A stretch of DNA of 64,000 nucleotides from a virus (taxonomy: Duplodnaviria; Caudoviricetes): positions 2,079-66,078 of IMG/VR virus record IMGVR_UViG_3300030419_007201. The stretch is one strand, 5' to 3'. This document shows positions 33,324 to 56,667 of the stretch, in pieces; the stretch's first letter is position 1, and every line of letters begins with the position of its first letter. Below the pieces are notes generated by a model. That model saw only the letters and a program-made list of their open reading frames with translations, ran no database searches and was not told the DNA's origin. Both the position numbers and the translations under genes were made by a program.

Positions 33324-33545
33324 ATGGGCAGCGAAATAAATGTAGGTTCTCTTGTGCATGTATCAGATGGTACAAAATTATTCAAATTTGATTCTGATAA
33401 AAAATGGATTGCCAAATATCTAGATTTGAAAGAAACGCATCTCCTAGTGATTGAAAGCCTTAACAAAGAAAACGATAAGCTTTACAAAGTCTTATACGGT
33501 GGCTCTGAGTGGTTTATCTCATCTAAAGATGTTACGATTATTTAA
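33324..33545 (+). CDS. Small SH3/KOW-like hypothetical protein
   Basis: VGSLVHV...YKVLY...WF pattern; start moved to MGSE. Confidence 0.55.
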   Translation: MGSEINVGSLVHVSDGTKLFKFDSDKKWIAKYLDLKETHLLVIESLNKENDKLYKVLYGGSEWFISSKDVTII

Positions 33546-34048
33546 TTAATCTGCCATCCATGTTGTTCGGCTAGTTGCTCAAGATCCTGCTTGTCGACCT
33601 GGAAAGCTATATTTCCCGGGAGACCTGGGACGGAGAATGGCTGGCTTAGTTCTTCAGGGCGCAATAGCATTTCTCCAGCACCGGTCATAGTAGTGTTGGG
33701 TCGCACTTGGCCGCGAGGAAGGCCTTGTAGAACCTGTAGAGTTAAGGTGACCGGGCGTGAACTGGCGCCTCCTTGTGCCATAGAAAGATAGGTAGGCTTT
33801 CCAGCCCTCATAGATGCATCGACATCGGGCCCAGGAGAATCTGCAACAGTGTGGTCTTGTACTTCAATATCGACAGTAGAACGACCTCCCTGCATCGCGT
33901 CCATAGCTAAATTAGTTAATTCATATAGATCGATCGAGATGGAGCCGTCTCTTCTTATTGCCGATACCTCATCCAAGGTATTGGCTTGGTCTTCGGTAAC
34001 ATACTTGCGCCAATTTTCAAATAAGTTTTTCATGTCTCTAGTACTCAT
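33542..34048 (-). CDS. FENW-leader protein, unknown domain
   Basis: MSTRDMKNLFENWRKYVTE; RBS GAGG; ACTATTTA upstream. Confidence 0.8.
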   Translation of the reverse strand: MSTRDMKNLFENWRKYVTEDQANTLDEVSAIRRDGSISIDLYELTNLAMDAMQGGRSTVDIEVQDHTVADSPGPDVDASMRAGKPTYLSMAQGGASSRPVTLTLQVLQGLPRGQVRPNTTMTGAGEMLLRPEELSQPFSVPGLPGNIAFQVDKQDLEQLAEQHGWQIN

Positions 34049-40161: not shown

Positions 40162-40830
40162 CTAGCTTCCAAGCAATCTAGCTACCTCATTGGCGATTCT
40201 CTCTTCTAAGCTACCGGCTGCGGGAACTCTAGCCTGTAACGGGGCTGCAGCGGTTCCAGTATCCATCATCCCTGCTGCACCAGGAGCCGTAACGCGCTTA
40301 TCTCCTTGCGCGGTGAGACCTGTCATGTCGGCACCACCTGCTTCAGGGCTTACTCTAGCGCCTTTCATCATAGATTGCAGTTCACGAAGAGCCGTTTCCG
40401 CCTCAGTAACAGCTGTGGTGATGGCATTATCAATTTTAGCTAAATTGTCTTTAATACCAGGAAATGCTTCTAAAGCATTCTGATCACCGGTAGAAAGCAT
40501 GAAGTTCATCTCATCAGTAAAGTCTAGCATAACGTCATTTAAGCGTGAGACGAATCCATTGACGACCTTAGCAGCTCCAGAGGCAGCTCTTTTGCCTTCT
40601 GCATCAAAAGGAGATACTTCACCTCGGATCACAGCGTCGACATCATCCATTTGGTTAAGGGTTGCAGCATCCCAATTACTTCGAAGCTTTTTTGCCAGAT
40701 CACTAGAGGATACTGCACGCTGCATTCTTCGCAACCAGCCAACTTCATCTAAAAGTTCGGGATTTTCCTTGATAAGAGCAGCTGTCTCCTCAAGAATGAT
40801 GTCTTTAAGTTCTTCTCTTGTGATCTTCAT
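40162..40830 (-). CDS. KIT/IIxEE-leader protein
   Basis: MKITREELKDIILEE; RBS GGAGG. Confidence 0.8.
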   Translation of the reverse strand: MKITREELKDIILEETAALIKENPELLDEVGWLRRMQRAVSSSDLAKKLRSNWDAATLNQMDDVDAVIRGEVSPFDAEGKRAASGAAKVVNGFVSRLNDVMLDFTDEMNFMLSTGDQNALEAFPGIKDNLAKIDNAITTAVTEAETALRELQSMMKGARVSPEAGGADMTGLTAQGDKRVTAPGAAGMMDTGTAAAPLQARVPAAGSLEERIANEVARLLGS

Positions 40831-40941
40831 GATATATCATACCTCCAGTAAAGAATCTGATCAGTTAAAACAAAAAATAGCTATTTTCTATCCTTCTACT
40901 CTATAATTATCACTTAAATCACAAAAAAGCTAATATTTTTT

Positions 40942-41709: not shown

Positions 41710-41779
41710 TGTCTATAAATAGTCTAAATTTTATCGCAATAATAATATAACAACAAAATTCTATAAGTAAAACATTATA

Positions 41780-42586
41780 TTATTCTGAATTTGCAAAATT
41801 TATCCAACTTTTGGTGAAGTCGCCACTTATAGACATCATTTGATCATATGATTGAAGCATAATATTGGACAATCTCTCTAGTTGGCCGCTTCTTCGTAAC
41901 ATTTTAAACGCTAGATTCTCAATCGAATACTCACCACCATGTTCGAGACCACATCTTCGAAATTTTCTTATCTTTTCTTTGATTTTGTTAGCGAAAGCAT
42001 ATGCCTCGTCGTATCTAGCCGTAGCAAATAAGGTTTCAACATCATCAATGAGCTTGGTAAGCATAGAATATTTCATCTCAACGCTCTTCCAATCCAAATC
42101 TATCTCTTGTTTAAATGGAGTTATTAACCATCTATCTCTCATAATTGAATATACGCCCGAAGATACATGTTTTTCTTTATCATCCTGTACATATATCTCT
42201 ACTTCGTGGTCAAAAATGCGGATATCGTGCATTCTATTCCAAATTCCTATCTTTCCACGGAAAAATTCCCTTACTAAATCAATATTTTCGTCCACTTGTG
42301 CATAATCGACCATGATGTGTAGATCAATATCAGAGTAATCAGACCAATTATAGTTGGCCAAAGAACCAGTAAACGTTATATCAGAGATAATAATTGATTC
42401 CAAGCCTACATCTTCTAGGAAATTCCTAGCTATTTTGGCTAATTTTTCTGATATTTCTGGTTTTAATTGATTGGGAGTCTTCCAAATCTTAGTGTTTAAG
42501 CTATCTTTTGGAATAAAATCTGTTAAATTGACAGATTTTTGTGTTTCTTGTAAGAAATCAGCCCAATTTTCAAAAAATTTTTGCAT
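41780..42586 (-). CDS. Pol-beta-type nucleotidyltransferase with FENW leader
   Basis: MQKFFENWADFLQE; TGS.ANYNW..YSDIDLH, EVEIYVQD, ENLAFK.LRR. Confidence 0.85.
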   Translation of the reverse strand: MQKFFENWADFLQETQKSVNLTDFIPKDSLNTKIWKTPNQLKPEISEKLAKIARNFLEDVGLESIIISDITFTGSLANYNWSDYSDIDLHIMVDYAQVDENIDLVREFFRGKIGIWNRMHDIRIFDHEVEIYVQDDKEKHVSSGVYSIMRDRWLITPFKQEIDLDWKSVEMKYSMLTKLIDDVETLFATARYDEAYAFANKIKEKIRKFRRCGLEHGGEYSIENLAFKMLRRSGQLERLSNIMLQSYDQMMSISGDFTKSWINFANSE

Positions 42587-42700
42587 TTTATAGACATCCT
42601 TGATCCATTGCTATATAAATAGCTGTCATGATGCTTAATAATATAACATTTATTTTAAAAATTTTTAAAGCTGGAGCGAATGGCTCTAAATCTTTCATGC

Positions 42701-44641
42701 TTAGTTGCCACCTTGGCATATATCATCAAGAATCTCCATTAAACTCGCATACATCTCAGTAGGATTATTAGTTAGCTTATACCAGTCGCCATTTCCTATA
42801 TTAGCAAGCTCTTCCCAGGAAATTTTATGACTAGTGCGCGAAAAAGTATACAATTTCAGTTGCGGCACTCCTGAAACCGCTGACTTTACATCTTCCAGGG
42901 CCAATTCAGGCTCCAAATAGCTCTGAGGGTGTTCATCTGTAAAGACAATTATAATTCTATCAGCACCAGGGCGCCAACTTATGTTAAAATTCTGGATCGG
43001 AGGTACTGATTGAACAACATCTTTAGGGTATGTACCTACAACACCTGTCCATTGTAATTCTGGGATGGAATACGGCAATATAGATGTGATATTGTGAACC
43101 GATAAGTAAATTGCATCTAATATCATCTCATATGATGTCTGCATTGTATCTGCGCTGGAGTCCATCGATGCCAAAGACAACAAATATTCTGAAAACCCTA
43201 CCAAATCTTGCTGTAGTTCCAGTCTTTCATAATATGATGGAGTGCCTATAGATACGGGGCCCCTCAAGAAAGACCATTTAATGACCTCTTCATCACTAAA
43301 ATTCTGAGCAAACTGATTTAGCGCGATCATCACAGCATCCATCTCATCGCCCATAGATCCTGACCAATCAACTATAAAAAGCACATCAGTAGGCTTCATT
43401 TCTTCGCCCCAGTCTGTTATGCCGTCACAGTTGTCATCAATGCCATTACAGATTTCTTCTTGAGGTACAATCTCATCTTTGCAGTAATACGCAATGAAGT
43501 CCTCGTCGTCATTATAATTACCCCAGGTGCCGGCATCACACGTCATGATTCCTGGTTCACATATGCCAACTAGAAGAGTGCCTTCTGGTCCGGTATAACA
43601 AGCTGAATATAAATCTTCGTCGATCAGTTGATTGCAATTCTCGTCAAAGTTGTTACACTTCTCTTGCTCAACTATCATACCAACAAGCGGATCGCATATA
43701 TCAGCAGGGTCTGTTGGTGGTATCCACTGACACAAGGCATAGCACTCTGTCATCGTAAGAGTTGTGCAGCCTGGATCAACGCATTCACATGTTTTATAAC
43801 CCTGGCCACATAACAGAGGATCTTCTTGGCATGGAAATAGCACCCCTACATCCTGTATTGTACATACGCACTCTAGCCCTTCATCGATTTGATTATCGCA
43901 ATCGTTGTCTAGGCCATCACATATTTCGTCATTTACCGGGGGTGCCGTACAAGATATCCAATTACCACTGTCGCACATTTCGTAACCAGAGCCACATGCA
44001 GTACTGCAAGGCTGAATTAGATCTTCATCAGTAATACCGTTGCAGTTATCATCAATATTGTTGCAAGTTTCTGATGGTAATATGCCACAATCGTTGCATG
44101 CATTAAGCTGTCCTTCATCAATCTGGCCATCGCAGTCGTCATCTTCATAATTACACGCCTCTTCTTCACAATCTGTTACACAGTCTGTATACTGTATTTT
44201 TCCCTTATTACAAACTTTTTCTTGCTGACCAGGAAACCCTTCGGGAGTTGTACATTGTAGGTATTCTAAATGATATTGTGTAGGGTCACACTCTAGATAT
44301 TCTTCGCATTCACTCTCATATACTAAAATCGGAGGATCTTTACATATATCATGACAAATTTGTTTTTGCCAAACTGAATCGAGTGGTGGACAAAAATACC
44401 ACTTACATTCCCAACAACTATCTCTGTAAGCCTTAAGGATGGCCTCTGTGACAGCTGGATCGTATGGAGCTAGTAGAGGTGGGATTACATTAATTAATGG
44501 CGTTTCTGATCCTGCTTCTTCTTGAGTCGTATCCGAGCATGATATTACTTGAGCTACCAAGATCATAATCGTTATACATACAGGCGCGTATTTTTTTAAA
44601 ATTTTTTTAAAACGCGAAGCTGTATGTAATATTAATTTCAT
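42701..44641 (-). CDS. Predicted lipoprotein with Cys/Asp-rich MopE-type repeats and a C-terminal vWA domain
   Basis: VISC lipobox; 5 repeats of the E.C(N/D)..D..C type (e.g. EICNGIDDNCDG); MIDAS DWSGSM, FTDE. Confidence 0.8.
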   Translation of the reverse strand: MKLILHTASRFKKILKKYAPVCITIMILVAQVISCSDTTQEEAGSETPLINVIPPLLAPYDPAVTEAILKAYRDSCWECKWYFCPPLDSVWQKQICHDICKDPPILVYESECEEYLECDPTQYHLEYLQCTTPEGFPGQQEKVCNKGKIQYTDCVTDCEEEACNYEDDDCDGQIDEGQLNACNDCGILPSETCNNIDDNCNGITDEDLIQPCSTACGSGYEMCDSGNWISCTAPPVNDEICDGLDNDCDNQIDEGLECVCTIQDVGVLFPCQEDPLLCGQGYKTCECVDPGCTTLTMTECYALCQWIPPTDPADICDPLVGMIVEQEKCNNFDENCNQLIDEDLYSACYTGPEGTLLVGICEPGIMTCDAGTWGNYNDDEDFIAYYCKDEIVPQEEICNGIDDNCDGITDWGEEMKPTDVLFIVDWSGSMGDEMDAVMIALNQFAQNFSDEEVIKWSFLRGPVSIGTPSYYERLELQQDLVGFSEYLLSLASMDSSADTMQTSYEMILDAIYLSVHNITSILPYSIPELQWTGVVGTYPKDVVQSVPPIQNFNISWRPGADRIIIVFTDEHPQSYLEPELALEDVKSAVSGVPQLKLYTFSRTSHKISWEELANIGNGDWYKLTNNPTEMYASLMEILDDICQGGN

Positions 44642-45021
44642 CTCTTTATAAGCATTAGATCCTGTTTTAAGCTTGGGACAATATTATATTTTTTTAGCTC
44701 TTCAAACCCTACCCACGCGAAATCAGTATTCTCGCAGAGATCTAGTGTCTCTTTAGTAACTATGCCGCTGTAAGTAAAAGTTTTAAATAAATAATTTTTT
44801 TTGCGGCGCCGGACAAATTCTAATTCAGCAATCGTTATACCAGTCTCTTCATTGACTTCACGTATAGCTGCCTCTTCTTCTGTCTCGCCTACTACAGCAT
44901 GGCCGCCAGGAAAACTCCACTTTCCTGGTTCCCACTCACAATTTTCTGCTCGCTTCAGTAACAATACTTGATCTGATTCATTGTATATTGCTACGATAGC
45001 TGTTACGTCTGTATCTTCCAT
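44638..45021 (-). CDS. NUDIX hydrolase
   Basis: PGG....GET.EEAAIREVNEETG. Confidence 0.92.
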   Translation of the reverse strand: MEDTDVTAIVAIYNESDQVLLLKRAENCEWEPGKWSFPGGHAVVGETEEEAAIREVNEETGITIAELEFVRRRKKNYLFKTFTYSGIVTKETLDLCENTDFAWVGFEELKKYNIVPSLKQDLMLIKR

Positions 45022-45036
45022 GCATATATTATAGGA

Positions 45037-45258
45037 TCACTTTTGGCTAAGTTTAAATTTTTTTCTATTTGGAAGATCGATTATAAGAAAGGTGCGCCCT
45101 GTATATGTCTTGTGCATGCCAACGTGGCCAGCGTTTTTTGTACAAAAATATTTGACATCATCATATGTTAGCTCAGCGAGGCACTGTGTGTTTTGTAGAA
45201 CTTCAGGGTACCCTCTCATTCTTTTATATAGCTTACATAATTTCTCAAATATTTTCAT
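45037..45258 (-). CDS. Small Cys/His protein
   Basis: C...C....GH.G.H pattern. Confidence 0.55.
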   Translation of the reverse strand: MKIFEKLCKLYKRMRGYPEVLQNTQCLAELTYDDVKYFCTKNAGHVGMHKTYTGRTFLIIDLPNRKKFKLSQK

Positions 45259-45272
45259 TTACATAATATTTG

Positions 45273-45587
45273 CTACATTGCAGGATCTTCGGCGCCGGCG
45301 TCGGGGGCTTGTGAAGGAGCCCCTTGTAATCTTTCTAACTCTTGAAAAACTTTTTGTAACAGAGTACCAATATTACCACTACGAATATTCGAAGCTTTAG
45401 CAGCAGCAAGAAGATCTTGAGCCAGCTTTGTCACAACAGCTCTTTCTTTTGGATCGGCACCTTGGGATTTTCCCAAATCTCTAGTCTGTGTTGTAAATTC
45501 GCCGGCTCCCATTCCCTGAGCGCCTTGAACGTCTTCAACAAGAACTTGCTTGATTATTTCTTTCAACCTGTCGTGTGTGAGTCTCAT
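45273..45587 (-). CDS. KIT-type leader protein
   Basis: MRLTHDRLKEIIKQVLVE; RBS AGGAG. Confidence 0.75.
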   Translation of the reverse strand: MRLTHDRLKEIIKQVLVEDVQGAQGMGAGEFTTQTRDLGKSQGADPKERAVVTKLAQDLLAAAKASNIRSGNIGTLLQKVFQELERLQGAPSQAPDAGAEDPAM

Positions 45588-45613
45588 ATTTTATCTCCTG
45601 TATAATATAATTA

Positions 45614-46087
45614 TTACTTAAATGACCATTTAACCTTGTTAAAGTCATTAAATTTTTCAAAAAAAGTATTAATGATTTCTCTATCGCTATCTAGAACATT
45701 TCCGCCAGGAGCGACAATCATTTTATCATTTCCTTTTTTTTGCGGTGCCTTTTCTCCATTATATTCAACTACCCCAATAATTTTTAAATTTTGAGGAGGT
45801 TGGGCGTTGCCAGAAGCGCTTGGTACAACAACCATATCCCATCCCATATCATCTGCAGGATTAATTAATTCTGGCCACTCTCCATAGTCAAATGGTAACT
45901 GGTGTAATGTTTCAGATCCAAATTTTTTATAACTATCGATTGGGCTATCAATATTGATTGTAAAATTTTCTTCTGGGTTTTGTTCTAGATATTTCTTAAG
46001 CTCTTCTTTAGTAGAAATAGTAATGCTTTCTCTTGGGGAATAGATCTCTCTAATGTACTTCCGCCAATTTTCAAATAGGAGTTTCAT
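45614..46087 (-). CDS. FENW-leader protein with inorganic-pyrophosphatase-like domain
   Basis: MKLLFENWRKYIRE; PFDYG...ADDMGWD...NDKMI. Confidence 0.7.
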   Translation of the reverse strand: MKLLFENWRKYIREIYSPRESITISTKEELKKYLEQNPEENFTINIDSPIDSYKKFGSETLHQLPFDYGEWPELINPADDMGWDMVVVPSASGNAQPPQNLKIIGVVEYNGEKAPQKKGNDKMIVAPGGNVLDSDREIINTFFEKFNDFNKVKWSFK

Positions 46088-46515
46088 ATTTTTACATACC
46101 ACACTTCAGGAGTTATTCCATAAGCCGCTGCAGCAACTAAACGCGTGTTGCCGGCAACAAGCCATGGGCTTTCGCCCTCTTTTTCAACAACTATAGGCGC
46201 ATTAAATTGAGATCCAGCTTCTATACCTTGTTTTATCCCTTCAAAATCTTTATTATTTTCTTTCCCAATTCTATCTAAATCTTCTACACTGTTTACTTCT
46301 CGCATTTGAGTATTCTGTAATGTATCATATAGTTCTCTAGACATTGGTATTAGCTGGCCATTGCTCTTAACATACTCTTCAAGTTCTTCTGCGGATAATT
46401 CAAAGCGAGGAGCGTGACGTCTAAATTCTCCAATTTCAGCAGATATATCTGGATGTTTCCATCTTACTTGAGCCTCAGTCAAATATTTCCGCCAATTTTC
46501 AAATAGGAGTTTCAT
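46084..46515 (-). CDS. FENW-leader protein with ParB/Srx-like domain
   Basis: MKLLFENWRKYLTE; APIVV...LVAGNTRL. Confidence 0.7.
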   Translation of the reverse strand: MKLLFENWRKYLTEAQVRWKHPDISAEIGEFRRHAPRFELSAEELEEYVKSNGQLIPMSRELYDTLQNTQMREVNSVEDLDRIGKENNKDFEGIKQGIEAGSQFNAPIVVEKEGESPWLVAGNTRLVAAAAYGITPEVWYVKI

Positions 46516-46649
46516 TTTAAATTAATTCCTATCTTTTTCGCTTCAATAATAGCCAGTACAGGAATTCCTGGATTTTTTGAATTGGTATACTTATCCCAAG
46601 CTTGTTTCATTCTGTCATATGAGACAAAATTACAAATTAACTCACCCAT
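46512..46649 (-). CDS. 45-aa ORF (not in track) containing leader-like MKQAWDKYTN
   Basis: Hand-translated; its stop is the TGA inside the next gene's ATGA. Confidence 0.45.
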   Translation of the reverse strand: MGELICNFVSYDRMKQAWDKYTNSKNPGIPVLAIIEAKKIGINLK

Positions 46650-46656
46650 TAAGAAT

Positions 46657-47556
46657 CTACGCCAAGTCATCCTTACGTTCCTCCAAGAACAACGGGAACA
46701 GCCCGACTAAACACCCTATTATAATGCCAATAACACTAGCTTGTTTGTCTAAAAACCTCATCCACACAGGGCCGGCTGCTACTTGCTCATCAGTTACCGA
46801 TTCAGGATCCAAACCCATTTTGTCCAGAGCACCTTCAATTGTGTTACTAGCTAATTCTCCAACCGCGTCGGAGACAGTGTTACCAAAGCCGGCCGCTAAC
46901 ATTGGCGCGGCAGTGGAGCCTACCATAGCACCTGCTACGCCACCAAACTGAGCGTCGATATGTGATCCTGCAATAACCATAATAAAGTTATCAATAAAGC
47001 CGAAAACAAACGATCCTATAAAGTTAGAGACAAACCTAATTAACCAATCTTTAACTTTTGGAGGTGCGACCTTACCAATAACATCCTCTGCCGCTTCTAT
47101 AAGTGCCTCGGCACCATTATCAGAAACAGTGTGAGCTACTAATTCAATAGTTTCTTGACCTACTCCCATTTTTGCCAAGTCTTCTAAAGAAAATTGTTTT
47201 GTATCTGGCGAATCAACGAACTTTTCCATCAAGGCTGTAGTGTCTTTGTTTTGAGAAACCTTATCAGCAATATCTCTTCCAATTTCTTGCATGTCCTCAG
47301 ATTGAGCTAAAGATTCTAATCTTTCTTTAAATTTTATCTCAAATTTTGCTTTAGTATCTTCAATCATCCGATCGAATTCTTCAGGAGCATTTATTAATTT
47401 GCTAAAACCAGTTTTAATATATTCTAATGGCCCTTCGGTACCTAAAGCTTTTCTCATTTTATAAGCAGAAGATCCCGGGATATATTCCGTAACATCTTCG
47501 TTAACATCTTCTACTTCTTTTAAATATTTTCTCCAATTTTCAAATAATTCTTTCAT
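46657..47556 (-). CDS. FENW-leader protein with C-terminal TMEM65-like membrane domain
   Basis: MKELFENWRKYLKE; FVFGFIDNFIMVIAGSHID...AAGFGNTVSDAVG...GIIIGCLVGLFPL. Confidence 0.75.
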   Translation of the reverse strand: MKELFENWRKYLKEVEDVNEDVTEYIPGSSAYKMRKALGTEGPLEYIKTGFSKLINAPEEFDRMIEDTKAKFEIKFKERLESLAQSEDMQEIGRDIADKVSQNKDTTALMEKFVDSPDTKQFSLEDLAKMGVGQETIELVAHTVSDNGAEALIEAAEDVIGKVAPPKVKDWLIRFVSNFIGSFVFGFIDNFIMVIAGSHIDAQFGGVAGAMVGSTAAPMLAAGFGNTVSDAVGELASNTIEGALDKMGLDPESVTDEQVAAGPVWMRFLDKQASVIGIIIGCLVGLFPLFLEERKDDLA

Positions 47557-48032
47557 GCGCCAGCCCACCTTTTTAGTTCTTCATAATCAGACTTAGAGCT
47601 TTTCTCAGAGGCAACATTAGCACCTGGATTGGGTGTTCCATGATACCACACGTAGTCTCCAGCTTCTATCAGCGTATCAATCCAATTATCAAACGGGGCG
47701 CCCTCCAGACTCACGTCGTAGAGGTCCGCTACCTGATTAACTATCTCAATGGCGTGATCTTCTATAGAATTTGCGATAAGGTACGGAGCATCATCGAAGG
47801 GAATTTCACCAGAAATATAACCATCGAGTCGAGAAATATATGTTTTAACCGCCTCTAAAATTTCATCAAAGATTCGAAGCATATCCATGTTACCAGTCAT
47901 TTCTGCTAGCTGCTTAGCTTGCACTCCGCTTCCCCAAAATATAGCTAAGAGCTTTTCGTTATCACTGTCTCCTAGTTCAAATTGTTGTGACTCATTAATA
48001 TAATATCGCCAGTTTTCAAATAGGGATTTCAT
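47553..48032 (-). CDS. FENW-leader protein, unknown domain
   Basis: MKSLFENWRYYINE. Confidence 0.8.
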   Translation of the reverse strand: MKSLFENWRYYINESQQFELGDSDNEKLLAIFWGSGVQAKQLAEMTGNMDMLRIFDEILEAVKTYISRLDGYISGEIPFDDAPYLIANSIEDHAIEIVNQVADLYDVSLEGAPFDNWIDTLIEAGDYVWYHGTPNPGANVASEKSSKSDYEELKRWAGA

Positions 48033-49239
48033 ATTTCATTACTCCCATCATTGTTTGTCCATATTCTGCTTTTGGATTGTCTGAATTTTTGACTGACATG
48101 ATTATTTTTCTAGCTTCGTCTTCATTAGGAAGATTAGCTATATTGTTCGCCAATTCTTTTTTTGTGTCAGCGTCGACTCCGAGAGCTGGGTCGTTTGTTT
48201 GCAAGACCAACAAAGCGCGCAGGACCTCCTGTGTTGGAGGAGAAAATGAGCCAACAATCCTCTTGTATGTCTGTTGTATTGTCTGCGTATCGACTTGTAC
48301 AAAAACATCAATTGGCTTATCTCCCTTCTCCTCATCATCAGCTACACTCTGTTTAGCTAGCTCGTCTCGTACTCGATCATCAGTTGGAAGCTTCTCTGAG
48401 GAAGTCTTCACAGTGACCTCTGCTTCATCACTATATATCTCTTTTCCTGCTTCAATTGCATTATAAGCATCAACAATAGCTGTGCTTGAATCGCGGCCTC
48501 CGTCTTGACCCATTATCATTCTGCCAGCATTTTGCAATAAATTGACAACCACACTTGAAGGATGTACCAAAATTGTATCAGTTAAGTACCCCATTTTATG
48601 TAAGCGAGTTATTCTATCAACCATCTTTTCTGGCTCATCTCCTACTTCATCGTAAGTAATATCCTGCTTTTGTGTGGCGGCTGATGCACTCTGGGATAAC
48701 TGAAGATGTCGTATAACACGCTTATGATCATGATAATAATGCAAGTTAGACGCTATGTCTTCTTCTTTTCCTCTTATGGTAGTTATAAAATCTTGTAAGT
48801 CTGCTTTCTGATTATTAACAAGTATATCACTATCATCTGCAGAATACTGCACACCAGCTGCCTGTAGAATTAAATTTGACAGTTTCCCATTCCAAAGCTT
48901 CTTGATATCATCAAACCATTTAGCAAAATTGGGATTCTCTTGTGAAAAGTCTTTAAGCGAATAAAAAGCCTTAAAAAACTCTGGCAGCCTTTCGCTAGCT
49001 GGTGCCTTTAAGAATTCATCTCTAATAACATCAACAGTTAAATTAGATCCTGTATCTGATGCTTGTTGAAATCTAGCTGCCAGTTTTCCAATTAAATCTT
49101 TAGTATAAGACTTTCCTGCTGCGGGGGCGCCCAAAACAGATATTGCCAAAGGATCAGCTTCTTCAACATATCTCGCTATTTCTTCTTCTATTGAAGATTC
49201 TTTTAGATATTTTCGCCAATTTTCAAACAGTAGTTTCAT
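48016..49239 (-). CDS. FENW-leader P-loop kinase (zeta-toxin-like)
   Basis: MKLLFENWRKYLKE; VLGAPAAGKS, ITYDEVG, NAGR...GGR. Confidence 0.65.
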   Translation of the reverse strand: MKLLFENWRKYLKESSIEEEIARYVEEADPLAISVLGAPAAGKSYTKDLIGKLAARFQQASDTGSNLTVDVIRDEFLKAPASERLPEFFKAFYSLKDFSQENPNFAKWFDDIKKLWNGKLSNLILQAAGVQYSADDSDILVNNQKADLQDFITTIRGKEEDIASNLHYYHDHKRVIRHLQLSQSASAATQKQDITYDEVGDEPEKMVDRITRLHKMGYLTDTILVHPSSVVVNLLQNAGRMIMGQDGGRDSSTAIVDAYNAIEAGKEIYSDEAEVTVKTSSEKLPTDDRVRDELAKQSVADDEEKGDKPIDVFVQVDTQTIQQTYKRIVGSFSPPTQEVLRALLVLQTNDPALGVDADTKKELANNIANLPNEDEARKIIMSVKNSDNPKAEYGQTMMGVMKYEIPI

Positions 49240-49756
49240 TATTATTTACCCCATGTTCTGAAAATATTGCGTTAATCTCTTCTGCTTCTATATCGCCTAG
49301 TTCGCCCATTGTGATACCCAAACTACGTCTTTTTGTATTTCGCGAGCGCGCTAACTGACGTCTTAAACTTTCTCCTTGTTGTGCCATCGGAGAGCGTGAT
49401 AATGCTTTGGCTACCGCTCCTAATTCGGAATCTGGGTGTGGATATTTATCCTCATGTTTGATAATCCACTGTTTGTCAAGATCTATTCCATATGTTGGAA
49501 ACCACATTCCAGCCGTGTGCTCAGTATCTGCTATGCTTGATCCGCCAGATCTATAAAATCCAACTTTTTTAGTTTTTTCGTGAGATTGATATTCTACAAC
49601 AACAAATAAACTATGATTCCAAAACAATGGCCCTTCCACAACTCTAACAGTTGAGGGGTCTACAGGCATAAAGCTGCCTCCGCGAGACCAAGGAGTGCCG
49701 GAGCCTGGATATCCTTTATCCAGATATTGGCGCCAATTTTCGAACAATAGTTCCAT
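49223..49756 (-). CDS. FENW-leader protein, unknown domain
   Basis: MELLFENWRQYL; FYRSGG.S...GMWFPTYG. Confidence 0.8.
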   Translation of the reverse strand: MELLFENWRQYLDKGYPGSGTPWSRGGSFMPVDPSTVRVVEGPLFWNHSLFVVVEYQSHEKTKKVGFYRSGGSSIADTEHTAGMWFPTYGIDLDKQWIIKHEDKYPHPDSELGAVAKALSRSPMAQQGESLRRQLARSRNTKRRSLGITMGELGDIEAEEINAIFSEHGVNNNETTV

Positions 49757-49758
49757 CT

Positions 49759-49944
49759 TTATTCATTTTCCTCGTGGAGAGTTGGCATGCCATTTTTTTC
49801 CAAAAATTTCATAATTCTCATTTGTAATTCTTTTGGTAGGCTCGCGGCTTCGGGTGCATATGCAATATCACTTAAAATTTCTATTGCTTCATCTTTAACA
49901 GTATTCCCTTCAAATTCTCTCCAGTTTTCAAGTATCGTTTTCAT
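49759..49944 (-). CDS. Small FENW-leader protein
   Basis: MKTILENWREF; RBS AGGAG; ACTAATTA upstream. Confidence 0.75.
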   Translation of the reverse strand: MKTILENWREFEGNTVKDEAIEILSDIAYAPEAASLPKELQMRIMKFLEKNGMPTLHEENE

Positions 49945-50338
49945 TATAGTTTATCTCCTTAAACTTATTCTTAATTAGTTCGTCGATTGGTACTGGCTCC
50001 CCATCTCCGTCAATTCTTACAAATGTCATGTCAGTTGTGCATACTGTTTTTTGTGATCCGTTGTATGGGCTATGCCTTCTAGCTTCTAATCTAATCGTTA
50101 CTGATGTATTTCCAAGATTAACAAGTTGGCCATAAATCTTTATTATTTGCCCAGGACGAACTGGTTTTTGAAACGTAACTTCAGAAATTTTAACTGTAAC
50201 CATTCTGGGTGTACTGCACGTCTGTGAAGAAAAAGCGGCGCCGGCCTCGTCAAGCCACGACATCATTGTCCCTCCAAACAAGTTTCCATGGACTCCCACA
50301 TCTTTTGTCATGCATACATGTGTCGCTATTAGATTCAT
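49928..50338 (-). CDS. Hot-dog-fold acyl-CoA thioesterase
   Basis: HGNLFGG.MMSWLDEAG, F.KPV..G, G.TS, TFVRID..G.P. Confidence 0.9.
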   Translation of the reverse strand: MNLIATHVCMTKDVGVHGNLFGGTMMSWLDEAGAAFSSQTCSTPRMVTVKISEVTFQKPVRPGQIIKIYGQLVNLGNTSVTIRLEARRHSPYNGSQKTVCTTDMTFVRIDGDGEPVPIDELIKNKFKEINYNENDT

Positions 50339-50417
50339 ATTAACCTCGTATAATATTATTCATCCTGCCATACAGCATATAACAGACATATAATTATACA
50401 CCCTCCGAATATTAATT

Positions 50418-50876
50418 TTAGTTCCATTTGTAGGTTTCCCTAAATATTTCTGCGCCTACAACGCCATAATCTCCGGGTCCATATTGCACCAAAAAATCTC
50501 CTACCTCTCCTTGTAATAGATCGGGAGACCAAGAGACCTTTACTTGAAATGGCTGCTGCATTTCTTTGGCAAATACTGGAATATCTTTCTTTGATGCCAG
50601 CCCGGGCATTATAATATCATAAGTCTGGGAAAAGCTTTCAGCAGGGATCGGCCATTGTTCGCCTTTTGTGCCGGTCATAATAGCATCCCCGGGATTAGCG
50701 TTTACCGGGCCTTCTTTTGTTTCAATTGTCTCAGCGCCTGAAGCATATCTAAATTGAAGAGGAATGGGTTTTTTAGCAGTTTGAAAAGCTTCAGGATCTT
50801 GAGATAGATCTGGGTTATCGTCTGCCCCGATGGCTTCATTTATATACTTGCGCCAATTTTCAAATAGAAGTTTCAT
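50418..50876 (-). CDS. FENW-leader PGDYG-type protein
   Basis: MKLLFENWRKYINE; ETKEG...GD...G..GEQWP...F..TY; YGPGDYGVV. Confidence 0.8.
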   Translation of the reverse strand: MKLLFENWRKYINEAIGADDNPDLSQDPEAFQTAKKPIPLQFRYASGAETIETKEGPVNANPGDAIMTGTKGEQWPIPAESFSQTYDIIMPGLASKKDIPVFAKEMQQPFQVKVSWSPDLLQGEVGDFLVQYGPGDYGVVGAEIFRETYKWN

Positions 50877-51733
50877 GACAGGGAGCCCATATCCGGATCT
50901 GTAGCATACTGAAACTCGTAACTTGATTCCTCCCAGCCGGCTTCAATAGCATCAATAATTTGATCTGGGGTAGGATTATGATTATTATACAATAAACTTT
51001 TTATGTGTGATAGCGCATATGCTACATTAGACATCGCTTCTGGATCTTTGCTATCTGGATCATATAATTCATATTCTTCTTCATGTCCTGCTGCTTGTTT
51101 CCATAGTATGTTATATAGATCTGCGGCAGCTGTTGCTCCAGCTGGGCCATATGCGTTTGAAAAGCCTTCCATTAGATTTTTTGTCAATGAAATTCCTCGC
51201 GCTTTCCTATCTTTTGTGTCAATATACACTTTATAACCCATCTTTTCTAGTTTTAGACATTCGTCTGAGTGAGCCCAGCGATTCTGTACCAATCTAGTAA
51301 ATTCTGGTGCATGTTCTCTAGAGTCTGTATTTAATTGTACAGTAATGTGTTTACCATCCACATACATGCTATTAATTGGTATTTCTAGTACATTTTGAGC
51401 AGATTCTTCAATTGTTTTAATAATTTCTGGATCTAATGCTAAATTTAATTGAATTGGATCTTTTGTACGAGACAAGAAGGCTTCTAAGTCTTCTCCTGGT
51501 TCTGAGGCTCGCGTCGGCCAAAGATCTGCATTTTCTGTACCATCTGGAAAGGTTATTGTGTACACTCGTCCGCCGGAAGTGTCGTGATAATCAACTATAG
51601 GTTGCCCTGGGCTCCATCGATGGTGTGAGGTTTTAGCAGAATTATAGCTATATTTATCGGTTATTATATCTTCTAAAGATGATGATTCATTAAGTTTATG
51701 ATACTTTCGCCAATTTTCAAATATATCTTTCAT
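50873..51733 (-). CDS. FENW-leader protein, unknown domains
   Basis: MKDIFENWRKYHKLNE. Confidence 0.8.
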   Translation of the reverse strand: MKDIFENWRKYHKLNESSSLEDIITDKYSYNSAKTSHHRWSPGQPIVDYHDTSGGRVYTITFPDGTENADLWPTRASEPGEDLEAFLSRTKDPIQLNLALDPEIIKTIEESAQNVLEIPINSMYVDGKHITVQLNTDSREHAPEFTRLVQNRWAHSDECLKLEKMGYKVYIDTKDRKARGISLTKNLMEGFSNAYGPAGATAAADLYNILWKQAAGHEEEYELYDPDSKDPEAMSNVAYALSHIKSLLYNNHNPTPDQIIDAIEAGWEESSYEFQYATDPDMGSLS

Positions 51734-51741
51734 AATAATAA

Positions 51742-52929
51742 TTACCTGTCAAAAATGATTACTTCCCCAGTTTGATAAGAAATTCCAAAATTACCTAAAT
51801 GCACATCACGAGTAAGATTTCCGTAAATAAATTGATCACCTACCGAGACAGCTAAATCATACATCGCTGTTAAAAAATCTTTTAAAAGCTTTGCGCCGGT
51901 ACCGGATTGCAGAACGGGTGGTATGGCCGGCAAATCTATAGGATCGACGCCATCGTCGCGATACTCTGGTTCTTGAGCCCAGCCATACTTCTGTATAAAC
52001 GCGCTATTGTTTTCCAATCCTTTCTTTTGAATCCATTCAAGAACATATTTAACATATTCGTCTGCGCCCCCTGCGACCATAGTGAAAGGCTTGATATGAT
52101 GTTTTTCTAGTTCACGATCATTCGCGATGTTATACATTGAGTTATTAGCTGCATCTTGCATGCCGTTAAAAAGATCTGTATCGAAAAATGTTTCAATAAT
52201 GCGACCACCTTGTACATCTTCGTATTCGTCTAACCAGTTTTCAAATGGAATAACTTTTCCAATTTCAGCATAGCCGGCATATTTTACGGGATTGACCATA
52301 TCTCTCTCTGCATTCGGTACATACATCGGCATTGTACCATATTCGTATACAGCTAGATCATGTGATCTTGCGGCTCCTCCAACTTGGGAATTTAAAAGCT
52401 TAGCATAGGTTTCAAGCTCTTTCTGCAAGCCGTAAACCCCACTTTTAAAAATTTTAACTACATGATCATTGCTGAACAATATCGCGATGCCAAAGCCACC
52501 TTCTCCAAGTACTTTTACAAATTTATGATCTTTAAAAATATTACTTGGGGTGCCGGCGCCTTCGGTTGTACCTTGTGTTGCACCTTCTAATGAATTACAT
52601 GAAAATGTTCCCGCATTTCTCCATTCATAACCTTTGATCCATTTTTTTAATTCAGCACAATTAAAAGCAATATTTTCTAAAGACTTTGGGGGCCGTTGAG
52701 CCTGAGCCTGTTCGAATTCTTCAGGAGATGATTTGCGATGTTGGCTTACTTCATCATCGGCTTTCCATTGTTTAAATTTTTCCCAGTCAGCCTCAGTAGA
52801 TGAAGGGCTCTCCTTCCACTTGGCAGCTAATTTTGTACGCTCCGCAGGTGGCTGGCGGTTGTCTAAAGCAGAGATAACATCGTCAACATACGCCTCTCGA
52901 ATAAATTTTTGCCAATTTTTTATTTTCAT
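51742..52929 (-). CDS. Protein-kinase-like protein with a leader variant
   Basis: MKIKNWQKFIRE; LGEGGFG, VVKIF, E, RDVHLGN, IIFD. Confidence 0.8.
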   Translation of the reverse strand: MKIKNWQKFIREAYVDDVISALDNRQPPAERTKLAAKWKESPSSTEADWEKFKQWKADDEVSQHRKSSPEEFEQAQAQRPPKSLENIAFNCAELKKWIKGYEWRNAGTFSCNSLEGATQGTTEGAGTPSNIFKDHKFVKVLGEGGFGIAILFSNDHVVKIFKSGVYGLQKELETYAKLLNSQVGGAARSHDLAVYEYGTMPMYVPNAERDMVNPVKYAGYAEIGKVIPFENWLDEYEDVQGGRIIETFFDTDLFNGMQDAANNSMYNIANDRELEKHHIKPFTMVAGGADEYVKYVLEWIQKKGLENNSAFIQKYGWAQEPEYRDDGVDPIDLPAIPPVLQSGTGAKLLKDFLTAMYDLAVSVGDQFIYGNLTRDVHLGNFGISYQTGEVIIFDR

Positions 52930-52931
52930 GG

Positions 52932-53654
52932 TTAAAGGTCATCATCATCCGGTAATGTTCCTGGCCCAGAGGGATCGAAGCCCTGTGCATTTTCTGTCCA
53001 GCCATCAGTACGCTGAAAATCTGTCTCGTTCTTAGTATCAGGTACCCACCTATCAAGAAACTTATTCATCTTTTTAACTAGGGCCCTGCTTGCTTTTGTT
53101 GGATCCTTGTCTTGTTGTCTGGCGACTGCTTCTTTTATGGGCCCTACTTCATCATCAAACTTATCTTCAATTTGTTTTAAAATTCTACAAATTTGCATTT
53201 CAGCATTTTGTTCGCACCCTGCTCTTTGGTTTGGAAGAGTTTCAGTCCAAAAAGTATCAACTGCTGCGTAGACTTCATCCCATGCTACTAATGTGTCTTC
53301 TTGGAGCCCAGTACTGTCCCATGCGCCTTCGTGGAGCCAGTGAGTAGATCGAGGTCCAATATACTTTTCCATCTTATTTGCAAGTTCTGGAAGGGTCTTT
53401 ACACTAGCAGCTGCTTGAGTAGATGTTATTCCATAAGCAGCTGCACTAGGCTCAGCTTGAGCGGTTGCTACTTGAGAAGTGGTCGAAGGCGGTGCTGCTT
53501 GAGCAGGTGTGGGCGCGCCTAAAGAGGATAAACCCATGGCTGCAGCAATAGCAGCATCCTTCCAACCTTCTTCAATTGGAGTATCGACTCGATTTTCAGC
53601 TTTAATAATCTCTTCTTTAATTATTTGTTGTAATCTTTGTTTTGTAATTTTCAT
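52932..53654 (-). CDS. KIT/IIKEE-leader protein with an internal signal-peptide-like segment
   Basis: MKITKQRLQQIIKEE...IEE|GWKDAAIAAAMGLSSLGAPTPAQA. Confidence 0.8.
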   Translation of the reverse strand: MKITKQRLQQIIKEEIIKAENRVDTPIEEGWKDAAIAAAMGLSSLGAPTPAQAAPPSTTSQVATAQAEPSAAAYGITSTQAAASVKTLPELANKMEKYIGPRSTHWLHEGAWDSTGLQEDTLVAWDEVYAAVDTFWTETLPNQRAGCEQNAEMQICRILKQIEDKFDDEVGPIKEAVARQQDKDPTKASRALVKKMNKFLDRWVPDTKNETDFQRTDGWTENAQGFDPSGPGTLPDDDDL

Positions 53655-54394
53655 TATGAAATTTCCTTGTTTTCTCTAAGACCTAAATCAGTGGCTAAGT
53701 CATCAGTAAATTGTGGTCGCTGGCTAAAAAAGTCTGGATCCTTAGCATAAAACTCAGCCATATCTGTTAAATATTGATAAACATTAGCTTCTTCGCCAAA
53801 CTCTTGTTGAAGAAGAGGAATAATTTTTTTTAACAATCCTGGAAATTTAGCCATATCCGTAGCAGCTAGTCTGGGCCAGCCCTCTTGAAGCATCTCGCGT
53901 CCTGATTTGTCGAAAAATGATTCTGCTAGCCAGCGATCTAAATCATCCATTTGCCTATCATATTCAGCTGCTCTTGGGTGATCTGGGCGATGACCTCCTC
54001 TTGAAGGAGCAGGGGGTGGCATTTTTGCTATTTTTGCTGTCTTGCCGGGAACTGCTTCTTGCTCATAGCCCGGCACATCTTCAAACCTTCCGTACATCCA
54101 TTCGTCGTCGTCGATGTTTTCTTCAAGATCACCCTCTTCTAACTGGCCAGATTCCTTATCTTGCAAATATCTCTTCGCACCTGTTGCGTTACGGAATCCA
54201 TCGTCATAAGGGTCTATATAACCTAGTCTTTCTGCCTCTTCTGCCTCTTCGCGGGTTAGCGGTCGACCATGTGGATCTGGTTCAGAATAATCGTGAGAAT
54301 GGCCTTCCGTTAAGGTATTTTGTTCTTCTCGTGTTATTGTTTCATTTAAAAAGTATCTTGGGTCAATACGTTTCTTGTTCTTAGTTGGTTTCAC
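53654..54394 (-). CDS. Acidic protein with multiple LxE sites
   Basis: MKPTKNKKRIDPRYFLNE; LTE, LEE x2, LAE, LQE, LRE. Confidence 0.75.
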   Translation of the reverse strand: MKPTKNKKRIDPRYFLNETITREEQNTLTEGHSHDYSEPDPHGRPLTREEAEEAERLGYIDPYDDGFRNATGAKRYLQDKESGQLEEGDLEENIDDDEWMYGRFEDVPGYEQEAVPGKTAKIAKMPPPAPSRGGHRPDHPRAAEYDRQMDDLDRWLAESFFDKSGREMLQEGWPRLAATDMAKFPGLLKKIIPLLQQEFGEEANVYQYLTDMAEFYAKDPDFFSQRPQFTDDLATDLGLRENKEIS

Positions 54395-55428
54395 TTCTTA
54401 ATACCTCCCATAAGCAATATAGCAACCAATCCTGGGACGTTATCTCTAATATAGACCCCAGAGAATAAAGTCTCGGTTCGTCCGCCGACATATGAAATAG
54501 CAGCATCCATATGTTGACTAATATTAGGATCATCTGCCATTTCTGGAGATACTACCAATAATAGCGCACCTGTCTTTGATTTTTCTTGTGAACTTGGGCA
54601 AGGAGATCTCTTAAGACAATTTTGATATATCATTGCTCCTAAGTTATCAACATTAGGGTCTCGAATTACCGTAGTACCAACAAGCATACGATTTTGTTGC
54701 TTTAAACAACGTTCCAAGTCCTTAGAATCAAAAGATTGAATAGCTGACTTTTCTGATGCTAGTTTAAAAGTTTGAGTTAGTAACTTAGCAAACGCTGAGT
54801 TGGCAGTTGGGAACAGCTTTGACATACCAACCTTGCCTCTGAGAATTTTAACCTGTCTTTCATTATCTAATATAATGTGAGGTGAAGACTTGACATCATT
54901 TGATAGAGATAGCGCATTTTTAGCTATTGTAGAGTTAAGCAACTCTTGAGAAGTAGGCCATGTAACTATATAGAATACTTTACCTTCTGCCCCAACAGAC
55001 TTTAAATATCTTTTAAATACATCGTCTAAAGCATGACATGCGCTACCAGTACCTCCGCCGCCGCCAGCAAGGACAAAAATCCAATCAACTTTTCCTAACT
55101 TTGTACGAAGCGCGTCTTCTACAACGGCACTATTCTGACCAAATACATCTTTTCCAAATTCTACGTTTTTTGCCACGCCGTCTGCGTCTGGAATCAGTAC
55201 TAAGTGTTTTGGATCTACATTGTCAGGCTGATCTTTTGCTGTTGTATTAATAAGGAGTGTTTTGTTGAACCCAATATCTAAGAAGGCTTTTGCTAGCTTG
55301 CCACCTCCTCCTCCGACTCCTATAAATGCGCAATTTAAAGCGCACTCAACTTCATTCTGTGGTAATTCGTTAGTTTGTGCTACTTCGTCTGCATCTCCAT
55401 AGTGGTCGACAAAATCAAATTCTTCCAT
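54391..55428 (-). CDS. Tubulin/FtsZ-family GTPase (PhuZ/TubZ-like)
   Basis: FIGVGGGGG, INT, GGGGGTGS, LDN, SFDSKD (T7-loop-like); RBS AGGAG. Confidence 0.85.
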   Translation of the reverse strand: MEEFDFVDHYGDADEVAQTNELPQNEVECALNCAFIGVGGGGGKLAKAFLDIGFNKTLLINTTAKDQPDNVDPKHLVLIPDADGVAKNVEFGKDVFGQNSAVVEDALRTKLGKVDWIFVLAGGGGGTGSACHALDDVFKRYLKSVGAEGKVFYIVTWPTSQELLNSTIAKNALSLSNDVKSSPHIILDNERQVKILRGKVGMSKLFPTANSAFAKLLTQTFKLASEKSAIQSFDSKDLERCLKQQNRMLVGTTVIRDPNVDNLGAMIYQNCLKRSPCPSSQEKSKTGALLLVVSPEMADDPNISQHMDAAISYVGGRTETLFSGVYIRDNVPGLVAILLMGGIKK

Positions 55429-55438
55429 TTCCCTCTCC

Positions 55439-55609
55439 TTATTTTAAAGTACGTATCTGTTTGTTAATTCTTTTAATTTGTTTACTCATTGATGCAACAT
55501 CATCTTCAAGCGAATCAATTCTTGACTGTGTTGTGTAATAAAAGCCACCTAAAGTTGCAGCAATTGTTAATAAAGTAATTAGTGTCTTAATGTCCAATTT
55601 AAGATCCAT
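55439..55609 (-). CDS. Small membrane-anchored coiled-coil protein (56 aa, not in track)
   Basis: Hand-translated MDLKLDIKTLITLLTIAATLGGFYY...RIDSLEDDVASMSKQIKR. Confidence 0.65.
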   Translation of the reverse strand: MDLKLDIKTLITLLTIAATLGGFYYTTQSRIDSLEDDVASMSKQIKRINKQIRTLK

Positions 55610-56058: not shown

Positions 56059-56064
56059 TTTTGT

Positions 56065-56667
56065 TTAATTGCTCCTGGGAGTTAACAAGCCATTACGTTC
56101 CAATGCAGTGTAGGCATAGCCAAACAACTGACTAAGAAATCCTTCGTTAACAGCTTGGATATCGCTTATTTTTTGTTGTAATCGCTCCGGTTGGCCACGA
56201 AGCTGGCCAAAAGCTTGCAAAAGCTGTAATCTGACTTCAACCAGCGAACTCATTAGTTTATCAATCGACTCTAATGCTGCAGCGATGTTTGGATCTGCAC
56301 CTCTGTTTGAGTGTAAAACATTGCGTACTCTATGAGCAATTCGAGTTGCGTTTTCTATTGCGCCTATAGTAACACCTTCATCATTAACGATACCTTGTCT
56401 CCATGCAGACAGCATTCCATCGTTGGCGTCGCCATGGCCATACAAAGCTCCTTGAAGCCATTGCCATTCTTTGTCAATCTGACTTCGAATATCATCAATA
56501 TCATCATTTGCACCCCCCGGAGGTGCATCACCGGTCGGGTTATCACGAGCGCGCTCATAATCACCGGGGATTGTTGGGTCGTATGGGCGCCCACCGTATT
56601 CCTTCATGATATCTCTAGACCGGTTACTGCTAGCCCATTTACGAAAATTTTCAAATAATTCTTTCAT
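56065..56667 (-). CDS. FENF-leader helical protein
   Basis: MKELFENFRKW...IMKE. Confidence 0.8.
   Translation of the reverse strand: MKELFENFRKWASSNRSRDIMKEYGGRPYDPTIPGDYERARDNPTGDAPPGGANDDIDDIRSQIDKEWQWLQGALYGHGDANDGMLSAWRQGIVNDEGVTIGAIENATRIAHRVRNVLHSNRGADPNIAAALESIDKLMSSLVEVRLQLLQAFGQLRGQPERLQQKISDIQAVNEGFLSQLFGYAYTALERNGLLTPRSN

Follow-up and report, generated by a model that had tools for sequence, protein, structure and literature searches.

The window analyzed here is a 64,000-nucleotide (nt) stretch (positions 2,079 to 66,078) of IMG/VR record IMGVR_UViG_3300030419_007201, a 66,078-bp single contig from an uncultured marine T4-like phage with a CheckV completeness of 36%. The window has a GC content of 40% and carries almost all of its genes on the minus strand, including all genes of the interval under study (positions 45614 to 51733), in which gene after gene begins with a version of the same short coding repeat (here called the leader; Table 1). 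We argue that the leader is a peptide tag and propose, at a probability of roughly 0.6, that it is a capsid-targeting propeptide like those of the T4 internal proteins, heading the cargo genes of a hypervariable array.

A peptide pattern for versions of MKLLFENWRKYLxE (the type-1 leader) identified 13 genes in the window, i.e., nine in the interval, one with a shortened leader (start, 52929), and three elsewhere (starts, 42586, 34033, and 56667). The leader core, TTYGARAAYTGGMG, has 10 copies in the window with at most one mismatch, all on the minus strand, compared with a mean of 0.52 in shuffled sequences; none of 100 shuffles reached 10. Over the first 29 nt from the ATG, the copy at 46059-46087 does not differ from that at 46487-46515, as noted in a preliminary description of this locus. 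A second leader, unrelated to the first (type 2; MKITKxQLKQIIKEE(L)), begins three genes of the window (starts, 53654, 45587, and 40830). At the DNA level (blastn), the interval had no match in cultured phages.

The leader is a modular peptide heading many unrelated proteins

A degenerate DNA pattern for leader residues 1 to 11 recovered 55 IMG/VR loci on contigs of up to 204 kb. These loci and others fetched later provided a set of 165 distinct leader genes from 52 genome groups, each encoding at least 40 amino acids (aa) and having 60 nt of upstream sequence. With the leader removed, the cargo of these genes fell into at least 85 families (single-linkage BLASTP at 1e-3). The leaders themselves follow the logo M-K-L-L-F-E-N-W-R-K-Y-L-n-E, in which conservation ends after Glu14, near nt 42; the mean pairwise amino acid identity is 0.67 over residues 2 to 14 versus 0.067 over residues 15 to 28. 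Because the 165 leaders have 148 distinct 33-nt spellings, in which Arg9 and Leu3 each draw on all six of their codons, selection acts mainly on the peptide, and the DNA is not a copied block. Upstream of the leader ATG, a weak Shine-Dalgarno site is present and nothing else is conserved. These results support a modular peptide under protein-level selection and bear out the suggestion of the preliminary description that the repeat encodes a tag.

In an AlphaFold model of the PGDYG-domain member of the array (50418-50876; mean predicted local distance difference test score [pLDDT], 89.5), residues 1 to 10 have pLDDT values below 50 and lie outside the fold, and this leader is therefore predicted not to be part of the folded protein. 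Among 71 cargo representatives taken from contigs other than the window, 11 had a Pfam family at E values up to 1e-4: NUDIX, protein kinase (twice, one below the cutoff), PGDYG, AAA_33, RNase_T, PolyA_pol/CCA-adding, SET, DUF3293, and two weak matches. When leader proteins were compared with 50,697 phage records (tblastn), no leader was matched and the TMEM65 domain gave one partial match, to a Vibrio phage; a literature search with the type-1 and type-2 leader strings found no paper in the collection searched.

The type-2 leader begins 78 candidate genes in the fetched loci and forms arrays of up to eight genes (L144; further loci are L146 and L129). Some phages of the lineage of the window seem to have the type-2 leader alone. 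An anti-Shine-Dalgarno role for the CTCCT spelling at Leu3-Leu4 of the type-1 leader was also considered and rejected: the spelling occurs in only 38 of the 165 leaders, and upstream Shine-Dalgarno-like motifs are no more common there.

A candidate capsid-targeting propeptide

In the reading that we favor, the leader would form a short helix outside the folded cargo, and this helix would bind the scaffolding core of the prohead, enclosing the protein in the capsid. A gp21-type head protease would cut after Glu14, and the freed cargo would be delivered with the DNA, as T4 does with its internal proteins. Cleavage sites of gp21-type proteases consist of a hydrophobic residue, any residue, and Glu. 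A triplet of the form [LIVM]-x-E occupies residues 12 to 14 in 125 of the 165 leaders and ends at residues 13 to 18 in 147, and residues 12 to 14 lay outside both the search pattern and the regular expression. By sequence, the leader thus appears to end in a motif resembling a gp21 site. In 31 homologs of the PGDYG member, the leader drifts to forms such as LSEAYHRVLSE, yet conservation of Glu6 and Glu14 does not fall below 90%. In the type-2 leader, Ile12 (70/78) and Glu14 (73/78) form I-K-E at residues 12 to 14, so that both leader types share the spacing to the same motif.

Peptidase_S77 (gp21) and the Gp23 capsid family are present in all five complete or near-complete leader-bearing genomes (184 to 204 kb). 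The leader-bearing genome G001 has a T4-like module of terminase, portal, protease, and capsid genes, and the nearest cultured relatives of its capsid protein are those of Flavobacterium phage immuto (45%), Microcystis phage Mel-JY01, and Rhodothermus phage RM378. A 79-aa open reading frame (ORF) beside the head protease gene of G001 (L157:8485-8724) weakly matches a ribosomal-protein-S21 PHROG (E, 1.4e-4). Closer to the window, the protease was found in three of five IMG/VR contigs of its lineage, i.e., those sharing the 646-aa protein encoded downstream of the array, which we used as an anchor (Table 1).

The gp21-like proteases themselves (L056-L060 and L171-L173) begin with the sequence M(S)K(V)LLREYYEL, and an L-T-E near residue 24 is invariant among them; this start region may be a propeptide of their own. 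One of the eight starts with MKLLREYYEL, and we considered whether the protease N terminus is itself a type-1 leader; it did not rank in the top 16 of 249 G001 ORFs by a leader weight matrix, and the likeness was treated as chance. A complex prediction with the G001 protease (8-row alignment) and residues 1 to 45 of a G001 leader protein scored 0.00, i.e., gave no answer, and is evidence neither way.

Several findings weigh against capsid loading. The three protease-bearing contigs of the lineage have no exact type-1 core, and the two with three and two cores are less complete, so that leader and protease were seen together only in more distant complete genomes; the head genes (protease and capsid) were not found in the 36%-complete record of the window. 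No cultured phage with the leader was found at BLAST sensitivity, and comparison with the T4 capsid-targeting sequence (MKTYQEFIAE) shows only Met1, Lys2, and Glu6 in common, which does not amount to homology. The cargo is acidic (median isoelectric point [pI], 4.98; 124/164 below 6) and often large (40/164 of at least 300 aa; the largest has 823 aa), and some of it looks cytoplasmic or membrane bound, i.e., a tRNA nucleotidyltransferase, a DnaQ-like exonuclease, NUDIX proteins, and a TMEM65-like membrane protein.

Acidic, often large cargo that includes normally cytoplasmic enzymes and a membrane protein, and as many as 13 tagged genes within 64 kb, far above the three of T4, would suit a leader that is an address or regulatory tag with no link to the capsid, such as a helix for docking to a hub or chaperone, a membrane-association helix, or a signal for timed degradation, its [LIVM]-x-E being no head-protease site. 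We regard such a tag as rather unlikely, however, given that two unrelated leader types carry the same [LIV]-x-E at residues 12 to 14, that Glu14 persists while the helix drifts, that the protease is present in five of five complete genomes, and that the surroundings of the arrays revealed no other sorting machinery.

Should the leader be a capsid-loading tag, abundant uncultured ocean phages would inject with their DNA a large and fast-changing set of proteins, well beyond the three of T4, which would include kinases, a SET-domain protein, NUDIX hydrolases, nucleases, and tRNA-repair-like enzymes. The tag would then flag likely first-strike factors for host takeover or antidefense straight from sequence, and it would provide a natural signal for packaging proteins into phage heads.

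Hidden stop codons and gene overlaps at the leader

The preliminary description drew attention to the DNA of the leader, in which TGA occurs in both alternative frames. This is the case: TGA is found at nt 2 to 4 in 156 of the 165 leaders and at nt 15 to 17 in 147. In the spelling ATG AAA CTN CTN TTT GAA, frame +1 has its TGA at nt 2 to 4, and frame +2 reads GAA-ACT-NCT-NTT-TGA, in which no earlier stop is possible. Since both stops are fixed, an out-of-frame upstream ORF that reaches the ATG must overlap the leader gene by 4 or 17 nt. The four ATGA overlaps and three 17-nt overlaps reported for the interval were all verified against the ORF list and the sequence (Table 1). They involve seven of its nine leader genes, and the other two are separated from the upstream gene by 8 and 2 nt. 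The gene at 49223-49756 lacks the second TGA because its Phe5 codon is TTC.

From these stops, the preliminary description proposed that the leader DNA acts as a stop, start, and tag junction and that recombination between leaders could add, remove, or shuffle gene cassettes without an integrase, a reading weighed here as the primary function of the leader. In its favor, 4- or 17-nt overlaps occur at 62 of 140 leader junctions compared with 84 of 868 junctions of other genes in the same loci; the other genes were given the start codon nearest the upstream stop, and leader junctions were still tighter. The frequency of overlap is nonetheless what the two fixed stops would produce mechanically. 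With random frames, two-thirds of tight junctions should overlap, and the observed values were 7/9 in the interval (binomial P = 0.73) and 83/112 in the full set (P = 0.11). In the latter count, which considered upstream ORFs of at least 40 aa, the upstream ORF of the 165 leaders ended with ATGA in 59 cases, with the 17-nt overlap in 24, and in frame 0 to 27 nt before the ATG in 29, and there was no such ORF in 53. The 17-nt overlaps, which had been taken as the stronger signal, do not have that status: frame +2 leaves no other outcome, and they are less frequent than ATGA overlaps (24 versus 59; P = 1.5e-4). The stop-start junction is real and more common than at other genes, but it follows from the codons of Lys2 and Phe5-Glu6. 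The overlaps probably couple translation, and this coupling is a by-product and not the reason for the existence of the leader.

Cargo turnover between syntenic flanks

The shuffling account also predicts that cargo changes while the flanks stay in place and that breakpoints fall in the leaders. A single scan gave 137 relatives of the 646-aa anchor protein, which is very widespread in marine metagenomes, and we fetched 80 of their metagenome loci; the closest relatives of the window, L085 and L073, have anchor proteins with 79 to 83% identity. In the window, the order of genes (named by product or number) is kinase-like, 286, and PGDYG, all with type-1 leaders; the leaderless thioesterase; 61, 177, 407, 159, and TMEM65, all with type-1 leaders; the leaderless 52; 143 and 157, with type-1 leaders; and then a type-2 gene, 73, NUDIX, and the anchor. 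L085 has PGDYG (type-1 leader), 613 (leaderless), c7, the 159 homolog, c7 again, and the 157 homolog (all with type-1 leaders), followed by a type-2 gene, NUDIX, and the anchor; its shared members are in the same order, and the intervening genes differ. L073 has no type-1 array at all: the tubulin gene is followed by three other genes, the same type-2 gene, NUDIX, and the anchor. A 68-kb relative, G006, is syntenic with the window over about 40 kb at 35 to 79% protein identity, yet only three array cargo genes are common to both.

Leaders also come and go on the same cargo. The NUDIX gene has a leader in G006 and none in the window, and the cargo of 56065-56667 is 72% identical over 148 residues to that of L073:2267-2962, which has a type-2-like leader, so that leaders have evidently been exchanged on one cargo. 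Neighbor families were conserved in 4 of 56 comparisons for type-1 leader genes versus 28 of 116 for nearby leaderless genes (P = 0.007, for pattern-chosen loci and pairs that are not independent); in anchor-chosen loci the values were 8/56 versus 2,497/4,238, with a control biased by the choice of loci. At about 78% DNA identity, homology begins at the gene start. Cargo and gene order thus vary between syntenic flanks, and leaders are swapped on homologous cargo.

Three indels could be resolved in contig pairs with flanks 91 to 99% identical, none of them in a type-1 array, and all three break outside leaders. Two involve leaderless genes (L128 versus L131 and L129; L077 versus L078), and the third is a 1,063-nt block with three type-2 leader genes (L120:1331-2534 versus L095:7540-7680; flanks, 91 to 98.5%); this block breaks in spacers, 11 and 38 nt before ATGs. 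The alignment of relatives that the preliminary description had suggested as a check therefore bore out its first expectation, variable gene order and content between syntenic flanks, and not its second.

Some observations do fit exchange at the leaders. Leaders identical over at least 29 nt from the ATG make up 6 of 307 within-genome pairs versus 51 of 13,071 between-genome pairs (P = 0.002), i.e., they are fivefold more common within genomes; however, synonymous codon identity within genomes (0.634) is hardly above that between genomes (0.593), and most leaders, with 148 spellings among 165, differ too much to be exchanged efficiently by homology. One seawater contig of 1,701 nt matches 49731-50814 at 99% identity; the match ends at 49731, 26 nt into the leader of 49223-49756. 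Many other seawater contigs share only the leaders of about 43 nt (about 45 nt for the type-2 leader of 52932-53654) and diverge on both sides. These contigs are short assemblies from four seawater runs compared with positions 40000 to 59000, in which uncovered parts are uninformative, and their joints were discounted as recombination because the sides of about 30 nt are the repeat itself. Short leader-only ORFs in other contigs would also be in line with shuffling. Such ORFs were seen at L004:2519 (18 aa), L053:1617 (21 aa), and L039:3235 (11 aa), and G002 has two leader cores 51 nt apart (74927 and 74978); they may be scars of deletions or of out-of-frame joins beside full leader genes. The few resolvable cases do not support recombination at leaders.

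Synonymous constraint within the leader

At one site, the leader DNA is held more strictly than the protein demands. Among the 152 leaders with a codon other than Met at position 5, nt 15 is T in 147. The ratio of TTT to TTC at Phe5 is 119:4, compared with 1,128:357 in the cargo (P = 1.5e-9) and with 224:49 for Phe before GA- codons (P = 2e-5), and Leu5 is CTT in 25 of 25 cases from at least 15 loci in which other synonymous sites vary (background share, 0.23). These skews indicate that nt 15 is held as T beyond the need of the protein, as a conserved junction would require. Against such a junction as the primary function, TTT is kept in 57 of the 60 Phe5 leaders without an overlapping upstream ORF, and sites that make no stop are equally skewed: Glu6 (GAA:GAG, 160:5), Leu3 (CTC, 0.36 versus 0.08), Leu4 (CTA, 0.53 versus 0.13), Arg9 (CGA, 0.55 versus 0.12), and Lys10 (AAG, 0.55 versus 0.29). 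Asn7, Tyr11, Asn13, and Glu14 have codons at background ratios, and the preferred-codon sites are leader nt 9, 12, 15, 18, 27, and 30 (e.g., in 46087-46046). The type-2 leaders have a similar skew toward A-ending codons and no fixed frame +2 stop. Considering also the breakpoints, we find it improbable that the leader is kept primarily as a junction.

A combined reading is a little less doubtful, although it too is distinctly unlikely: the 42-nt leader may be dual coded, as a capsid-loading peptide and as a frame-independent junction, such that cargo genes whose frame extends into the following leader could move in front of any leader among coinfecting phages while keeping their stop and their coupling, in an integrase-free cassette system for injected effectors. 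On this reading, the junction would consist of TGA-AA in both other frames, with nt 15 staying T where Leu or Ile replaces Phe at residue 5. In any case, the constraint on the nucleotides of the hidden stop poses a small puzzle concerning overlapping constraints at gene junctions.

That the repeat is instead a standard translation-initiation cassette acting as RNA, with the peptide incidental, is very improbable: several synonymous sites are far from background in both leader types, but Arg9 and Leu3 use all six codons although their residues are fixed, four other codons are at background, and only the weak Shine-Dalgarno site is conserved upstream. A search for the RegA-type repressor family as a reader of leader RNA found it in none of five genomes; control genomes gave no match either.

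Genes of the array and its surroundings

The coordinates of the array and of neighboring features are given in Table 1. Homologs of the 395-aa gene in G006 (37% identity) and in L074 have a full leader in place of the shortened one, and the cargo of the 407-aa gene had no close relative in IMG/VR, where matches were mostly to the leader alone. Downstream of the array, the 646-aa anchor (42701-44641) contains MopE-like metal-binding repeats and matches VWA weakly. Upstream, the tubulin/FtsZ-like gene has a counterpart with 79% identity in G006 and another in L073, which has no type-1 array.

Table 1. Array and neighboring features of the window; genes on the minus strand start at the higher coordinate
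Feature	Coordinates	Strand	Remarks
163-aa type-1 leader gene	33542..34033	-	Distant from array
Type-2 leader gene	40162..40830	-	Start, 40830
268-aa gene, diverged type-1 leader MQKFFENWADFLQE	41780..42586	-	phrog_36119
Conserved downstream flank	42701..45021	-	NUDIX gene (44638-45021), leaderless here, and 646-aa Cys-rich VWA protein used as anchor
104-aa gene, type-2 leader MRLTHDRLKEIIKQVLVE	45273..45587	-	Conserved flank of array
157-aa leader gene	45614..46087	-	Last of type-1 array; L085 homolog with 78% DNA identity from 3 nt before ATG
143-aa leader gene	46084..46515	-	First 29 nt same as in next leader gene; ATGA overlap 46084-87
52-aa ORF without leader	46512..46670	-	Stop in next leader (ATGA 46512-15)
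299-aa leader gene, TMEM65-like membrane-domain cargo	46657..47556	-	Pfam TMEM65 (E, 5.5e-22); G006 homolog, 57% identity
159-aa leader gene	47553..48032	-	Stop in next leader (ATGA 47553-56); L085 homolog at same relative position
407-aa leader gene, Walker-A-like N-terminal part	48016..49239	-	Zeta_toxin match below cutoff; ends in next leader (17-nt overlap 48016-32)
177-aa leader gene MELLFENWRQYLDK	49223..49756	-	2-nt gap upstream; ends in next leader (17-nt overlap 49223-39)
61-aa leader gene MKTILENWREFEG	49759..49944	-	Codon 5 is Leu CTT; hidden TGA retained
136-aa 4HBT thioesterase gene without leader	49928..50338	-	Ends on TGA at nt 15-17 of next leader (17-nt overlap 49928-44)
79-nt spacer	50339..50417	.	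Sole long intergenic gap within array; promoter scan not clearly above shuffles
152-aa leader gene, PGDYG-domain cargo	50418..50876	-	Pfam PGDYG (E, 7e-19)
286-aa leader gene MKDIFENWRKYHKLNE	50873..51733	-	8-nt gap from upstream gene; stop within next leader (ATGA 50873-76)
395-aa cargo gene, shortened leader MKIKNWQKFIRE	51742..52929	-	Kinase-like glycine-loop motif; no Pfam family found
240-aa gene, type-2 leader MKITKQRLQQIIKEE	52932..53654	-	Many seawater contigs match about 45 nt of leader only
Conserved upstream flank, tubulin/FtsZ-like gene	54391..55428	-	Pfam Tubulin, 29 bits, below the 33-bit cutoff
200-aa gene, type-1-like leader MKELFENFRKW	56065..56667	-	Outside interval

Elsewhere, the window encodes a T4 gp55-like late sigma factor, PhoH, Hsp20, a sigma-70-type factor, the tubulin/FtsZ-like protein, a NUDIX hydrolase, and a long sugar/glycosyltransferase cluster. 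This cluster, of about 18 kb (6971-25485), comprises sugar-nucleotide enzymes and glycosyltransferases, and G006 shares its ends only.

Promoter-like sites numbered 46, not clearly above the number in shuffles (34.4 ± 5.6), and terminator-like sites numbered 6 versus 9.4 in shuffles. The T4 late promoter consensus, TATAAATA, had 4 matches in the window versus 6.7 expected, and the gene strand had none. Of these matches, three (41714, 42614, and 59443; plus strand) sit 5 to 28 nt upstream of the starts of minus-strand genes, on the opposite strand, and read TATTTATA on the gene strand.

Comparison with known systems

Like an integron cassette array, the locus is a row of unrelated genes that all point the same way and are bounded by a repeated element. 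Unlike in integrons, the repeat is a 42-nt coding leader and no structured attC, exchange at the repeat is only a conjecture, and no integrase family was found among the 59 of 91 window ORFs that were scanned. Another parallel, in T4-type phages, is provided by the PeSL cassettes, short DNA repeats that mark gene boundaries within hyperplastic regions and for which integrase-free modular shuffling has been proposed (Arbiol et al. 2010, PMC2839356). The PeSL element is an intergenic promoter with a stem-loop, whereas the conserved DNA here is coding, extends from the ATG on, and has nothing conserved upstream, so that the leader is not a PeSL element. In the giant phages phiKZ, 201phi2-1, and SPN3US, gp21-related proteases remove propeptides from head and ejection proteins by cutting after Glu, and a short motif precedes the cut in many different head-internal proteins (PMC9026906), as would be the case here; they differ in that one fixed 14-residue leader is reused here, while theirs are not described in that article as one common sequence.

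The nearest counterpart is the capsid-targeting system of T4. Its internal proteins undergo a single cut beside a capsid-targeting sequence of about 10 residues, MKTYQEFIAE, and any protein fused to this sequence is reported to be packaged (PMC8442874). T4 propeptides of 10 to 19 residues bind the core and are removed by gp21, and gp21 and its relatives in giant phages cut after Glu, with an LIE in gp21 that fits the cleavage logo (PMC9026906). The leader is described as the sole sequence common to the T4 internal proteins, whose loci are polymorphic (PMC3012670, PMC2839356, and PMC12373910). In the present system, a short N-terminal propeptide is likewise the sole common part of unrelated proteins, the motif hydrophobic-x-Glu likewise ends in Glu, and the loci are hypervariable; the complete leader-bearing genomes, although not the incomplete record of the window, carry a protease of the gp21 family along with a T4-type head module. 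T4, in contrast, has three internal proteins, which are small and basic; the leader here heads at least 85 families of cargo, with as many as 13 genes in 64 kb, and this cargo is acidic and often large or enzymatic. The leader is also longer (14 versus 10 residues), it has no alignable similarity to that of T4 beyond the three shared residues, and a second leader type coexists with it. Thus, while sequence homology and small basic cargo set T4 apart, the shared propeptide, the Glu-ended motif, and the hypervariable loci suggest that these ocean phages may operate a system that works like the capsid-targeting and internal-protein system of T4.

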